DNA from: Candidatus Doudnabacteria bacterium
Lineage (GTDB): Bacteria > Patescibacteriota > Doudnabacteria > UBA920 > 2-01-FULL-46-14
Length of the DNA stretch: 64,000 nt
Assembly (NCBI GenBank): GCA_041497195.1
Contig: JBGQGB010000001.1
Coordinates: 73,904 to 137,903 of the forward strand
Reading direction: 5' to 3'
The position numbers and the translations under genes are program-made. Numbering within the stretch: the first letter of the stretch is position 1; every line of letters begins with the position of its first letter. The notes beneath the pieces were generated by a model. That model was not told the DNA's origin and made no database searches. It saw only the letters and a list, made by a program, of their open reading frames with translations. This document shows, piece by piece, positions 29,487 to 36,106 of the stretch.

Positions 29487-29569
29487 AACTTACTCAACAT
29501 TATAACAAAATAATGCTAAAAAATCAAAAAACGCCCCGGTGCCTAAACAAAGGACGTTTTTTGAGAAAT

Positions 29570-29908
29570 CTAACGCTTGGTAGTACTCAGTTGTTTCTTG
29601 ATAGCGACCCAGTGGCCTTTCAATTCTCGCAATGCCTGGCGAAACTCCCGACTGTCGACATGTTTGAGGGCCTCCAAGTGGGCGTCAAAATCTCCGGCCA
29701 ATTTAGCGTACGTCTTGGCTTGCGCGGCCTGCAACCTATGAGCCGTTTTTTTGATCTGCAGACCGACTTTTTTGGCGCCGCTACTGATTTTGGCGCGATT
29801 TTTCTCGCCGCGTTTACCGGTCAAATAATACGCCCCGGCCACGGCTGCTGCCGCGGCAGCAGCTATCCCTAATTTGAGGCCAGACTTCGATTTTTTTTGC
29901 TTGGCCAT
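29570..29908 (-). CDS. YtxH-like protein
   Basis: Ala/Gly-rich N-terminal helix followed by KRGEKNRAK, as in the YtxH family. 112 aa. Confidence 0.4.
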   Translation of the reverse strand: MAKQKKSKSGLKLGIAAAAAAAVAGAYYLTGKRGEKNRAKISSGAKKVGLQIKKTAHRLQAAQAKTYAKLAGDFDAHLEALKHVDSREFRQALRELKGHWVAIKKQLSTTKR

Positions 29909-32664: not shown

Positions 32665-33063
32665 TTATTTCGCCCCCATGTCCCCACTGAAATTCCAACC
32701 TGCTTCGGTCAGGTAGACTCTCTTCTGAGGTCCCTCCTGATTACCTATTTCGACCAGACCCATATCTGCCATGACTAAGATATACACGTCCAGAGGCACG
32801 TCCTGAAAGATCTCACGTAGCCGCTGAATAGGAGCGGCAAGGCCTTCCTGGATGAGTTGATCAGCAATCAGCTCCATCGACTTCAGAGCCACGTCTGCAA
32901 GCCTCCTCGATCCGCGCAAATACTCTCGGCAGTTTTCGCAACGCAGCAGGTGTTTTCCCAGTGCTCGTCGGTCTGACTCGGTCAGCTCATCATAATAACA
33001 TTCCGAGATGAGCGAGCATAACCGCGACCGGGCCGCCTGACCACCAGTCTTTTGCCTGTTCAT
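32665..33063 (-). CDS. zf-HC2 (ZAS-type) zinc-finger protein with a C-terminal wHTH-like segment
   Basis: CSLISECYYDELTESDRRALGKHLLRCENCREYL fits the ZAS anti-sigma zinc-binding pattern (C...H...CxxC). No TM helix. C-terminal RVYLTEAGW is MarR-like. Confidence 0.45.
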   Translation of the reverse strand: MNRQKTGGQAARSRLCSLISECYYDELTESDRRALGKHLLRCENCREYLRGSRRLADVALKSMELIADQLIQEGLAAPIQRLREIFQDVPLDVYILVMADMGLVEIGNQEGPQKRVYLTEAGWNFSGDMGAK

Positions 33064-33164: not shown

Positions 33165-33317
33165 TTATTCCTCAGATTTAGTTTTGACCTCGGAGTGCTC
33201 ACCGTCATCACAATTGCACTCTAGAAGGGGCTGGCCTTGGAGCGAGCATCCTTCGGTGTCGCAATTTTTCGGGTGATCTGCTACCCCGCCGCAAGCCGGA
33301 CAAACGTAGTGAGTCAT
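33165..33317 (-). CDS. Possible small Cys-rich (zinc-ribbon-like) protein, 50 aa
   Basis: My translation gives MTHYVCPACGGVADHPKNCDTEGCSLQGQPLLECNCDDGEHSEVKTKSEE. It is below the ORF-track size cutoff and has no clear Shine-Dalgarno. Confidence 0.25.
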   Translation of the reverse strand: MTHYVCPACGGVADHPKNCDTEGCSLQGQPLLECNCDDGEHSEVKTKSEE

Positions 33318-33459: not shown

Positions 33460-33488
33460 TTGACATTTTTTATATTGTCCCTTACAAT
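33460..33488 (+). promoter_or_regulatory. Near-consensus sigma70 promoter, antisense to the NYN gene
   Basis: TTGACA (33460-33465), a 17-nt spacer, then TACAAT (33483-33488). It is on the strand opposite to all neighbouring genes. Confidence 0.55.
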
Positions 33489-33494
33489 ATAGTC

Positions 33495-33557
33495 GAATCA
33501 TGACGAAAAAGCACTTCTTTGGGTTCCGTCCCTCAGCGGTGCTTTTTCATTTTGTAT
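33495..33557 (+). ncRNA. Predicted short promoter-driven transcript ending in a hairpin, cis-antisense to the 3' end of the NYN gene
   Basis: About 7 nt downstream of the -10 element. A 10-bp stem (gaaaaagcac 33505-33514 with gtgctttttc 33539-33548), a 24-nt loop, then ATTTTG. It overlaps the last 8 codons and the stop of the NYN gene on the other strand. An in-frame 41-codon ORF exists but looks non-coding. Confidence 0.35.
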
Positions 33558-34036
33558 TCCAGTCGATTTCTCAAGTTATTCAAAAAATCGATTTTATCTC
33601 GAGCGGACCTTTTCAGCAGAATTGAACACTTCTCCTTGTTTGGACTAATGACTTTTTCCAACTTTTTATTTTTATGCAAATACTCAACTAGAGAATAAAA
33701 ATCCCCGTCACTGGTGACGATCACGGCCTTGTGGTAATTGGGACAATCAAGCATCGCGCGCAACACCAAATCCGCGTCCACATTTCCTTTGACTAGCCCG
33801 TCTCTCGGTTTTAACACCGGTTTGAAAACCAGAACATAACCAGTCTCCTGCAGAAACTGATAGAGTGTCTGATTCTCCGGCATATAGCCTATGAATAAAT
33901 AAGCCTTGGTAACGGCGTATTTTTCTGACAGGTACACTCTGAATCTGGCATAACTCAGCTTCCAACCGAGAGACTGAACTCCGAGGTTGAGGTTTTGGCT
34001 ATCGATAAATGCGTAATTTTGTTCCTTTTTTTTCAT
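33533..34036 (-). CDS. NYN-domain (LabA-like, PIN-related) putative ribonuclease
   Basis: AFIDSQNL (N-terminal Asp) and VIVTSDGDF acidic motifs typical of NYN/LabA. 167 aa. Starts 14 nt after the map stop. Confidence 0.7.
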   Translation of the reverse strand: MKKKEQNYAFIDSQNLNLGVQSLGWKLSYARFRVYLSEKYAVTKAYLFIGYMPENQTLYQFLQETGYVLVFKPVLKPRDGLVKGNVDADLVLRAMLDCPNYHKAVIVTSDGDFYSLVEYLHKNKKLEKVISPNKEKCSILLKRSARDKIDFLNNLRNRLEYKMKKHR

Positions 34037-34050
34037 GACTGAAAAGCTTA

Positions 34051-34815
34051 CTAGACAGTGAGGATCACGGGTCCGTTTTGGGTGAGCGCGATGGTGTGCT
34101 CGAAATGCGCGGCCAGAGAGCCGTCCGCAGTGGCCACAGTCCAGCGGTCAAGCAAAAATTTTACCTGGTACGAGCCTGTGGTAAACATGGGCTCTATAGC
34201 CAGAACCATGCCGACCTTGAGTCGCGGCATCGAACCGGCGCGGCCGTAATTGGGCACGTTCGGCATTTCGTGGATCGCGTGCCCAACGCCGTGCCCGACC
34301 AGATCGCGGATTATCCCAAAACCAGCCTCGTCCGCCACTTTCTGGATGGCCGCGGCAATATCGCCGATGGTATGGCCTGGAACAGCCTGCTCGATCCCCT
34401 TCTCGAGCGCCAGCTCGGTGGTCGCGATTAGCTTGTGAGCGTCGCTGCTGACCGTGCCCACTGGCACGGTGATAGCTGCGTCTGTGTAGAGGCCCTGGTA
34501 TTTGATACCAAAATCCAGGCCGATGATATCGCCGTCTTTGAGTACCCTGGTCCGGCTTGGGATTCCATGGACCACCTCGTCGTTTATGGAGGTACACAAA
34601 ACCGCCGGATAGGGCGGTCCATCGGGTACGATTTTGTACCCTTCAAAAGCGCTAGTAGCGCCGGCTTTTTTTATTTCCTCCCGGGCCAGCTCGTCGAGTT
34701 CCCGGGTCGTGATTCCAGGTCGGACTCGTTTGGCCACAAGGCTCAGTATGGCCGCCAAAATCTTGCCCCCTTCTCGGAGTGTTTCGATTTCTTTTGCTGT
34801 TTTAACGAGGCTCAT
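34051..34815 (-). CDS. map: Methionine aminopeptidase, type I
   Basis: Pita-bread-fold metal ligands (D, D, H, E, E pattern), 254 aa. It is the last gene of the ribosomal superoperon. Confidence 0.9.
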   Translation of the reverse strand: MSLVKTAKEIETLREGGKILAAILSLVAKRVRPGITTRELDELAREEIKKAGATSAFEGYKIVPDGPPYPAVLCTSINDEVVHGIPSRTRVLKDGDIIGLDFGIKYQGLYTDAAITVPVGTVSSDAHKLIATTELALEKGIEQAVPGHTIGDIAAAIQKVADEAGFGIIRDLVGHGVGHAIHEMPNVPNYGRAGSMPRLKVGMVLAIEPMFTTGSYQVKFLLDRWTVATADGSLAAHFEHTIALTQNGPVILTV

Positions 34816-35389
34816 TTTCCTCCTCCGGAATATTCAACCACTTCTGGAAGGCCGCAATTATACTTTCAATGACCTGCTCCAAGCTATTAGCTGCAGTATC
34901 AACGACTAAGTCAAATTGCGTTTTATCGGTAACATCTATGCCGTACAAGCTGCGGTACCGCTCTTGCTCGCTTCTGACTCGTTTAAACGTGTTCTTCTGA
35001 ACTTCTTCGATTGACGCTCCAGCTTGGCTGGTTCTCCCTTCTTTCTGAATCTGCGCAAACGTCCGCTCAGCCGCTGTTCTGGGGTCAAGATCCAAAAAAA
35101 CTTTGAACGAATTTGGTATCCAGTGGTAAGCCGTGCGCGAATCGACCACGAGATGGTCCTGCTCCTTCCCTATTTTCTGCAGAAGCTGGTCGACTGCGTC
35201 ATCAATTTCTTTTTGTTTTTCAGCGAGAAAATTGAGTTGTTCCACAGTGACGCCCCTGTCTGCGGCCATTTTCCTGAACAAGTCGCCAGATGAAAAATGC
35301 TCGTATCCCAGTTTATTGGCAAGCACTTTTGCGGTGCTAGATTTTCCGCTACCCGGAAGCCCGGTAACGGTGATGATATGTTTTTTCAT
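34802..35389 (-). CDS. cmk: Cytidylate (CMP) kinase, archaeal-type P-loop kinase
   Basis: ITVTGLPGSGKSSTAKVLANKLGYEHFSSGDLFR is the same pattern as archaeal CMP kinases. Located between adk and map, as in archaea and CPR. Confidence 0.65.
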   Translation of the reverse strand: MKKHIITVTGLPGSGKSSTAKVLANKLGYEHFSSGDLFRKMAADRGVTVEQLNFLAEKQKEIDDAVDQLLQKIGKEQDHLVVDSRTAYHWIPNSFKVFLDLDPRTAAERTFAQIQKEGRTSQAGASIEEVQKNTFKRVRSEQERYRSLYGIDVTDKTQFDLVVDTAANSLEQVIESIIAAFQKWLNIPEEENEPR

Positions 35390-35464: not shown

Positions 35465-36106
35465 CTAAAATCCTAATTTCTGCAAAATTTCCTGGTGCAC
35501 AGAATCGATCGAGGAAGCCCCGTCTACGGTGATGAGCTTGCCTTCCTTGACGAATTCCGCGATCATCGGCTGCGTCTCGCTCCGGTAAAGATCCAGGCGC
35601 TTGCGGATGGCTTCGGGCTTGTCATCATCGCGCTGGATGAGCTTGCCCCCGCAATTCTGGCAAGAATCGTACTGACCCGCAATGTAGACTGAACCGCACA
35701 GCTCGCAGGTCACCCGCATGGATAACCGGCGAATGCTTTCCTCCTCGGTCAAATCTATGAGCAGGGCCTGGTAATCCCCGCGCCCGGTCCCGGGCCAAAA
35801 CTCTCTGAGCAGCTGGTATTGCTGCAAAGTTCTGGGAAACCCGTCGATGATGATGCCTTGCTCCCGCGAGATTTTCAGAAGTTTCTGCTGGATGACTTCG
35901 GCAATGAGTGCCGGCTCCACGAGCTCGCCTTTGACATTGATGATTTCGTGGACGCGCCGAGCAAGGTCAGTGTCTTCCTTGGCCATCTCGCGCAAACTTG
36001 CCCCCGCGTCTATCACAACGAGATTGAGCTTGTCCGCCAGGAGCCGGGCCTGAGTCCCTTTGCCGGAACCCTGGGGTCCTAAAAAAAATAGATTAAAAAC
36101 CTTCAT
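35465..36106 (-). CDS. adk: Adenylate kinase (zinc-finger lid type)
   Basis: GPQGSGKGTQ P-loop. Lid CELCGSVY...CQNCGG (Cys4). Confidence 0.9.
   Translation of the reverse strand: MKVFNLFFLGPQGSGKGTQARLLADKLNLVVIDAGASLREMAKEDTDLARRVHEIINVKGELVEPALIAEVIQQKLLKISREQGIIIDGFPRTLQQYQLLREFWPGTGRGDYQALLIDLTEEESIRRLSMRVTCELCGSVYIAGQYDSCQNCGGKLIQRDDDKPEAIRKRLDLYRSETQPMIAEFVKEGKLITVDGASSIDSVHQEILQKLGF

Follow-up and report, generated by a model that had tools for sequence, protein, structure and literature searches.

The window analysed here is a stretch of 64,000 nucleotides (nt) from a Candidatus Doudnabacteria genome, and nearly all of its genes lie on the minus strand. At the end of a ribosomal-protein operon the genes run in the order rplO-secY-adk-(second kinase)-map, after which comes a gene for a protein of the NYN family. 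On the plus strand, facing the 3' end of this NYN gene, are a sigma-70-type promoter, an imperfect hairpin and a U-rich tract (Table 1). The subject of our study is this plus-strand element, which on the evidence of its sequence is a small-RNA gene with a predicted transcript of about 59 nt, and its relation to the NYN gene.

Table 1. Positions of the NYN gene and of the parts of the small-RNA element in the window
Feature	Position	Strand	Remarks
NYN gene, 167 amino acids (aa), LabA/COG1432-type, PF01936	33533..34036	-	Pfam, invariant columns, AlphaFold, fold matches
Sigma-70-type promoter	33460..33488	+	-35 TTGACA 33460-33465, 17-nt spacer, -10 TACAAT 33483-33488
Predicted small RNA, about 59 nt	33495..33553	+	Putative start G33495/A33496, putative end in the U tract
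Single-stranded 5' tail GAAUCAUGAC	33495..33504	+	Family consensus (U)AGAAU-NNNN-A
Imperfect 44-nt hairpin	33505..33548	+	Fold and covariation
Outer stem	33505-33515 with 33538-33548	+	Includes U33515·G33538 wobble
Perfect 10-bp stem	GAAAAAGCAC 33505-33514 / GTGCTTTTTC 33539-33548	+	Sequence
Conserved U·C mismatch	33516/33537	+	Kept across the family
Inner stem	33517-33523 with 33530-33536	+	Partly paired; GGG/CCC clamp around the loop
Apical element GG-UUCCGU-CC	33522..33531	+	Hexaloop 33524-33529; family GG-UUYYGU-CC
U-rich tract UUUUUCAUUUU, terminator tail	33543..33553	+	ATTTT at 33549-33553; columns 51-60 mostly U in the family
Overlap of the 3' part of the small RNA with the last six NYN codons and stop (21 nt)	33533..33553	both	Sequence

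The promoter, the perfect 10-bp stem and the T tract lie exactly at the coordinates assigned to them in a preliminary description of this DNA. That description had also called the promoter the best of the window. It scores 11/12 against the consensus, is the top match within 28-40 kb and is the only 11/12 match on the plus strand, and to this extent the statement holds; the 64-kb window has three 11/12 matches, so the rank is shared with two others. By our rough estimate about one such match is expected in the window by chance, and the hexamers, which alone are not significant, therefore prove nothing by themselves. The proposed RNA of about 60 nt, with its 3' arm and U tract over the last six NYN codons and the stop (TGA at 33535-33533 of the minus strand), agrees with the sequence. 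Promoter geometry puts the predicted start 7-8 nt past the -10 box, and the CA that interrupts the U-rich tract is the complement of NYN codon bases.

The stability that had been anticipated for this RNA is borne out by folding. The segment 33494-33560 has a folding free energy of -25.1 kcal/mol (z = -6.1), and none of 200 shuffled sequences folded as well. On the plus strand the hairpin reads A5-GCAC...GUGC-U5 followed by CAUUUU, which has the form of a bidirectional Rho-independent terminator; a simple terminator scan skipped it because its loop region is beyond the scan's 3-8-nt limit. If the NYN transcript reads into the hairpin, the entire hairpin is complementary to the NYN 3' untranslated region. 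The covariance model built for the family, R1, scores 76.4 bits on the plus strand and 24.9 bits on the minus strand, and finds this sole copy in the 64 kb.

Two other candidates at the site were rejected. A plus-strand open reading frame (ORF) of 41 aa at 33500-33625 starts within the RNA, contains the terminator and has no Pfam match, and its ATG (A3 columns 8-10, see below) is not conserved; no tRNA or tmRNA was found at the site by ARAGORN. We also note a 19-bp, operator-like palindrome, ATATTGT-CCCTT-ACAATAT, at 33472-33490 of the plus strand, which overlaps the -10 box. It may be lineage-specific or a chance feature, since related loci do not share the promoter spacer.

The NYN protein matches PF01936 with E = 1.8e-14 (54.9 bits against a cut-off of 24.2). 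Among NYN relatives its acidic residues D12, D87, D110 and D112 never vary, and D89 hardly does. The AlphaFold model of the protein, which has a predicted local distance difference test score (pLDDT) of 86.6, matches the fold of 2qip, a LabA-like structure (template modeling score 0.72, E = 4.7e-9), and that of the MARF1 NYN domain. Judged by its residues and predicted fold, the protein looks catalytically competent. The only PADLOC hit was to a generic NYN model and was weak (E = 6e-8), and NCBIfam gave none. In a classification of PIN-like proteins the NYN.COG1432 cluster has about 8,700 members of unknown function, and neither an RNA partner nor a toxin-antitoxin (TA) role is named for it (PMC5499597).

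Conservation, structure and strand of the RNA

Species-representative genomes were scanned for relatives of the NYN protein, which gave 38 protein-anchored loci. A hairpin of the same type stands at the NYN 3' end in all 15 loci with a NYN identity of at least 52% (L008-L022), and most of them have an antisense TTGACA-16/17-TATAAT about 45 nt past the NYN stop. The covariance model detects the RNA at 14 of the 15, and the fifteenth has a recognizable, divergent hairpin. Six further NYN homologues, picked solely for their long contigs, all carry the RNA (62-82 bits by the same model). The same RNA is thus present on the antisense strand at 20/21 loci reached through close NYN homologues; conservation of the promoter and hairpin with the NYN gene, which the preliminary description had named as a check, is what we found wherever the RNA-linked NYN subfamily occurs. 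Seven assemblies with an identical NYN protein are 100% identical over the region and hence uninformative on conservation.

The other sample was anchored on the RNA. Metagenomes were scanned with the NYN-sense pattern CACCGC-N4-GGACRRAACC-N4-GNNGTG, and at least 120 matches were obtained. One of them, L062, lies inside a long ORF, has no U tract and was dropped as a chance match; at least 119 metagenome loci fit the small-RNA element. The RNA-anchored counts, the promoter percentages and the statistics of alignment A3 refer to these metagenome matches listed, at least 119 loci. The pattern had no match in viral contigs. A3 holds 117 distinct sequences, and A5 holds 17 NYN-anchored sequences, fitted to the model.

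The 18-pair hairpin is paired in 93% of the cells of A3. Ten pairs change on both sides; none of 500 shuffles was as good, and no slid register came near. The covarying columns 14/55, 18/51, 19/50, 26/43 and 29/40 were unconstrained by the search pattern, and the 17 sequences of A5 give the same pairing picture. When A3 is read on the window plus strand, G·U and A·C cells stand at 121:11. This bias, together with the model score of 76 versus 25 bits, places the RNA on the promoter-bearing plus strand, antisense to NYN. The apex GG-UUYYGU-CC is invariant, its sequence being fixed by the search pattern in the metagenome set, and it is also kept at the NYN-anchored loci, which were found independently of the apex sequence. 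The U·C mismatch occurs in 112/117 sequences although the pattern permitted a pairing G there. In the 5' tail, column 5 is A in 110 and column 6 is U in 97 of the 117 sequences. Pairing between the 5' and 3' tails, as in the minimum-free-energy structure of the window RNA, was considered and rejected: across loci about 38% is paired, equal to shifted registers, and this pairing is not conserved.

Is the promoter also a property of the family? The best -35/-10 combination within 46 nt upstream of the RNA reaches at least 10/12 in 80% of 116 loci, whereas random windows from the same loci reach that score in 0.8%. The -10 box ends 20-25 nt from the hairpin core across loci, and because this distance is fixed we assign the start to the conserved (U)AGAAU (33495/33496 in the window). 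The conservation of the RNA is independent of coding, since the NYN stop sits at several offsets from the RNA core (about -14 to -7, +6 to +8, +20 to +22 and +35 to +38) and in differing frames, so that it may precede the stem, fall in the 5' arm or within the inner hairpin, or come after it; RNA nucleotides are kept between NYN proteins that are only 50-70% identical.

The NYN genes of related loci have weak and variable promoters (best scores of 6-10 of 12, at shifting positions), and a strong conserved NYN promoter, which was sought across the loci, was not found. A -10-like box (TATAAT or TAGAAT) stands 4-9 nt ahead of the NYN ATG in L051, L060, L083, L107, L112, L121 and L132, which suggests that NYN messages may be leaderless or near-leaderless in some lineages. 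In the window the NYN gene starts 14 nt after map without an obvious Shine-Dalgarno sequence.

Rfam has no match over the window at gathering thresholds, and a permissive local search gave chance-level scores (E of 2 to 8). The literature that we searched contains no description of this RNA or of the NYN-RNA pair. As no Rfam family or paper found matches it, the RNA appears to be an undescribed family.

Loss, orientation and spread of the module

The RNA-anchored loci are of several kinds. An intact convergent NYN gene is present in 73, the NYN gene is cut by a contig end in 7, and in 3 the arrangement is tandem, with the RNA gene co-directional with NYN and downstream of it. Only NYN fragments are left in 9 loci, no NYN is detectable in 19 despite sufficient DNA, and 8 have too little flanking DNA to be classed. 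Some 27% of the RNA genes are without an intact NYN (about 104 informative RNA-anchored loci among the matches listed). The converse, an intact NYN of the RNA-linked subfamily without the RNA, is almost never seen at the protein-anchored loci.

The fragments are remnants of internal or 5' deletions. In some, 'NNYAFIDSQNLNLG...' from the N-terminus is joined to '...LEYK' and the RNA is present; others retain the C-terminal 'FMDNLRKKLEYK' alone. Genes that now adjoin fragment loci include those for Fic, HsdM, an integrase, a reverse transcriptase and a RelE-like toxin. The orphan RNA genes resemble those of intact modules in features that the search pattern left unconstrained: the promoter reaches at least 10/12 in 70% of orphans versus 80% in intact modules, 6.70 versus 6.68 of the 7 outer-stem pairs are formed, and the orphans also keep their U tract. 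This asymmetry, an indirect line of evidence, is the pattern expected if the NYN protein would be harmful without the RNA, and it resembles TA-like decay.

As a separate observation, in-frame fusions of the first 10-60 NYN codons to the last few ('...LGW-NLEYK...') are seen in L113, L140, L100, L162, L122, L118 and L080. The junction in L113 falls between a WKLxY (residues 25-29 of the window protein) and a similar KLEYK near the C-terminus. These fusions suggest that the NYN gene may have been deleted recurrently between short repeats.

In about 96% of modules (80/83, with NYN either intact or truncated by the contig) the arrangement is convergent and the RNA runs antisense to the 3' end of NYN. 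In the remaining three, L067, L085 and L123, the two genes share a strand, with the RNA gene downstream. L067 and L085 have an intact NYN with all acidic residues and have clearly diverged from one another. At the tandem loci the duplexes between the RNA and the NYN message are no better than shuffled controls. At canonical loci, pairing of the RNA with the NYN translation start is not special either (mean of -16.2 kcal/mol for cognate pairs, -17.2 for shuffled and -15.8 for non-cognate ones). Because two intact modules carry a co-directional RNA, pairing in cis as an antisense RNA is not obligatory; by the sequences compared here, antisense overlap is strongly preferred.

The contexts in which the module is found vary widely. 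A conserved protein-coding neighbour that could be a third component was sought at related loci, and none was found. Modules occur next to transporters and pilin genes, and others near Mrr and HEPN_AbiU2. In L171:3113-5799 the NYN gene and the RNA, together with unannotated ORFs of 110, 183 and 393 aa, lie between atpA and atpG of the atp operon. In a record labelled Manganitrophaceae (4.6-Mb chromosome) the module is flanked by a large serine recombinase and an AAA_15/21 ATPase, and in a Bacteroidota metagenome-assembled genome by a MazF toxin and an S24 repressor. At the loci of the closest Map relatives, which are 64-66% identical, the order secY-adk-adk-map is the same, and both NYN and the RNA are missing. 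In a collection of 5.8 billion proteins, Map of the window (34051-34815) has no relative above 66% identity except its own sequence, while the NYN protein has a top match of 75% identity and thousands of relatives at 65-70%. The accessory NYN gene is thus better conserved than the adjoining housekeeping gene map, which along with the shifting context argues for horizontal transfer. These comparisons point to the RNA and the putative nuclease as a self-contained, horizontally mobile module of two parts. Carriage by phages or plasmids was looked for: phage records gave no protein match, and plasmids gave only NYN proteins at 27% identity.

Possible functions and related systems

The module is probably an RNA-controlled nuclease of a TA-like kind, a reading that we hold with middling confidence. 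The RNA would be a dedicated, antitoxin-like antagonist of NYN, made in excess from its strong promoter, with NYN expressed from weak and variable promoters. The hairpin, with its invariant apex and U·C mismatch, would be recognized as a structure, most likely by the NYN protein itself, and might serve as an inhibitor or as a decoy substrate. In the convergent layout, the hairpin's full complementarity to the NYN message at its 3' end would contribute antisense control as a second layer, and the same hairpin probably terminates both transcripts. We favor recognition of a structure because the apex is invariant, the mismatch is conserved, the stems covary, exceptions in orientation exist and orphans are retained. 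A more specific proposal, which we regard as tentative, is that a single structured RNA of about 59 nt directly binds and silences, or licenses, NYN. The module would then be a repeat-free TA or defence module resembling type III, spreading horizontally through Patescibacteria into Nitrospirota and Bacteroidota, and the orphan RNAs could be immunity against re-invading copies (anti-addiction).

Several points weigh against an RNA-controlled toxic nuclease. LabA-type NYN proteins are without demonstrated nuclease activity (PMC5499597). The Saccharibacteria NYN genes (41-52% identity; L023-L045) lack the RNA and have a stable neighbourhood, and NYN proteins are therefore not inherently dependent on an RNA partner. 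The metagenome loci were chosen with the RNA pattern, so that conservation at pattern positions is circular there and the share of orphans is biased upward; moreover, a small RNA gene could outlive deletions by chance. The predominance of convergent modules would suit a mainly antisense action better than binding to the protein, and the tandem cases form one clade, effectively one event, with a premature stop in L123. Finally, we infer transcription, toxicity of NYN, inhibition by the RNA and contact between RNA and protein from sequence, and the ends of the RNA from the geometry of promoter and terminator.

The preliminary description had compared the locus with type I pairs in which a small RNA overlaps the 3' end of a toxin message. 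The asymmetry of NYN and RNA loss lends this parallel indirect support, and the antisense majority agrees with it; the co-directional RNAs of L067 and L085 do not, nor do the loop and the mismatch, which cis-antisense pairing does not need. In its pure form such control would act solely through pairing of the RNA with the NYN 3' end (by duplex cleavage, mRNA decay or blocked termination), with the enzyme as toxin. We judge this unlikely as the whole mechanism; yet it stays a serious rival owing to the convergent bias, with 3' ends that overlap. The strong RNA promoter facing weak NYN promoters would suit it equally, and the loops of the sense and antisense hairpins are complementary and closed by G/C pairs; a conserved mismatch would favor an intermolecular duplex over the hairpins. 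Orphan RNAs, the RNA sequence being conserved, could likewise pair with incoming NYN messages. Against it, the NYN proteins of L067 and L085 keep their catalytic Asp residues next to RNAs whose complementarity is at the shuffled level, and no extra pairing with the translation start was seen. A cis-antisense RNA is moreover complementary by construction, which leaves the invariant loop, the covarying stems and the U·C mismatch unexplained.

Could the RNA instead serve the cell in its own right, as a structural RNA or a regulator acting in trans, with NYN as its processing or turnover enzyme or as a frequent passenger? The orphan genes that keep promoter, stem and terminator would be accounted for, the conserved 5' tail (AGAAU) and loop are single-stranded and seed-like, and NYN proteins are predicted to act in RNA processing (PMC5499597). 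Nevertheless, we consider this quite improbable: the nearest relatives of this genome and the Saccharibacteria NYN loci lack the RNA, its patchy occurrence in mobile or TA-type contexts is ill-suited to a housekeeping RNA, and a trans target was not found. Every orphan examined adjoins a NYN remnant, which implies that the RNA arrives with NYN. A riboregulator of operon-end transcripts, another suggestion of the preliminary description, is unlikely, since the module closes a ribosomal-protein operon in this window alone. A site acting at the level of DNA or single-stranded DNA, for instance one used in recombination or attachment, or a mobile-element end, would agree with the mobility of the module, which is often near recombinases, integrases or reverse transcriptases, and with several contigs that break at the element; hairpins of single-stranded DNA tolerate G·T pairs as well. 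It is very improbable given a conserved consensus promoter from which transcription would begin some 10 nt ahead of the hairpin, and the U tract after it, and the element has no matches in viral contigs or phage records. Hardly credible as a full explanation, finally, is the further suggestion that the element is simply the NYN terminator, acting in both directions, with hexamers that are fortuitous or serve something else. The GCAC...GUGC core between A5 and U5 is terminator-like both ways, and one 11/12 promoter in 64 kb is within chance. However, the -35/-10 boxes are consensus-like and kept at a fixed distance far more often than in controls, an invariant loop and mismatch across such divergent proteins are atypical of terminators, the G·U bias favors the strand opposite NYN, and the element survives deletion of NYN.

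Among known systems, the txpA/RatA, bsrG/SR4 and bsrE/SR5 pairs of Bacillus subtilis are similar in having convergent units that overlap at their 3' ends. They share with our module a short RNA with a strong promoter and a terminator hairpin, as well as small size, mobile or accessory contexts and copies that decay. Their toxins are hydrophobic peptides of less than 60 aa, whereas here the partner is a predicted soluble NYN-fold enzyme of 167 aa; the RNA here is about 59 nt, essentially one hairpin, and conserved across phyla, and intact modules exist with a non-antisense RNA. The module lies outside type I, since an enzyme takes the place of the small peptide and some modules appear to lack the pairing. 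SymE/SymR and RalR/RalA of E. coli are type I systems with nuclease toxins and provide a precedent for an RNA antitoxin that controls an enzyme toxin. The likeness is in the combination of a nuclease-type protein with a small RNA regulator. With SymR, however, the overlap covers the 5' end of symE and its ribosome-binding site, and in the case of RalA pairing occurs in trans with Hfq, while in our module the overlap is at the 3' end, no pairing with the start is seen and the fold is NYN.

The type III systems (ToxIN, CptIN and TenpIN) also combine an endoribonuclease-type protein with a dedicated structured RNA, independent of antisense geometry, and a direct neutralization such as theirs is what we propose here. 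Their RNA consists of tandem repeats of 34-40 nt arrayed upstream of the toxin gene, cotranscribed with it and processed by the toxin; here one hairpin, with a promoter to itself, lies downstream and as a rule in convergent orientation. Their toxins have the ToxN/AbiQ fold, unlike the NYN fold found here. With no repeats, another layout and another fold, the module falls outside type III as well. Regnase-1 (Zc3h12a) regulates itself through a stem-loop in the 3' untranslated region of its own message, and thus offers the likeness of a PIN-like superfamily nuclease linked to a conserved stem-loop near the 3' terminus of the message that encodes it. It differs in being eukaryotic, in belonging to PF11977 and in having its stem-loop on the sense strand, whereas our strand evidence favors an antisense RNA. 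By the original 2006 definition the Regnase-1 nuclease domain falls within the NYN group (PMC5499597). Among the LabA/COG1432 NYN proteins (PDB 2qip), of which the window protein is a member, the RNA-linked subfamily is distinct from the syntenic, RNA-free subfamily of Saccharibacteria.

To our knowledge, few small RNAs have been described in Patescibacteria, also known as the Candidate Phyla Radiation (CPR), to which the present element would add a widespread family. A dedicated RNA partner and the hypothesis of a toxic nuclease would provide a first handle on the LabA-type NYN proteins. If the RNA is an antitoxin, the range of RNA antitoxins would grow to include a new toxin fold and a layout intermediate between type I and type III. 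Insertion of the module into ribosomal-protein and ATP synthase operons of very small genomes suggests a selfish, addiction-like persistence. Model R1 and alignments A3 and A5 permit annotation of the module in metagenomes.

Further features of the window and of NYN relatives

The NYN subfamily of Saccharibacteria has proteins of about 190-210 aa with a basic C-terminal tail and is syntenic with a PIF1/RecD-like helicase at 15/21 loci, which hints at a role in DNA or RNA metabolism. In the window, a second good promoter-like site (TTGATT-17-TATAAT, extended TG, 10/12) is present at 29499-29573 of the minus strand. The hairpin right after it is a weak R1 match (18.9 bits, E = 0.4) and is probably an unrelated terminator-like hairpin.

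Small unannotated genes lie downstream of the module, two of them on the minus strand and directly next to it. A 50-aa Cys-rich protein with the arrangement CxxC...C...C...CxC, likely a zinc ribbon, is encoded at 33165-33317, and at 32665-33063 a protein of 132 aa that weakly matches zf-HC2 (anti-sigma-like) and winged-helix domains; neither accompanies NYN at other loci. Upstream, between secY and map, are two tandem minus-strand genes for adenylate or cytidylate-kinase-like proteins (34802-35389 and 35465-36106), and the nearest relatives have the same arrangement.

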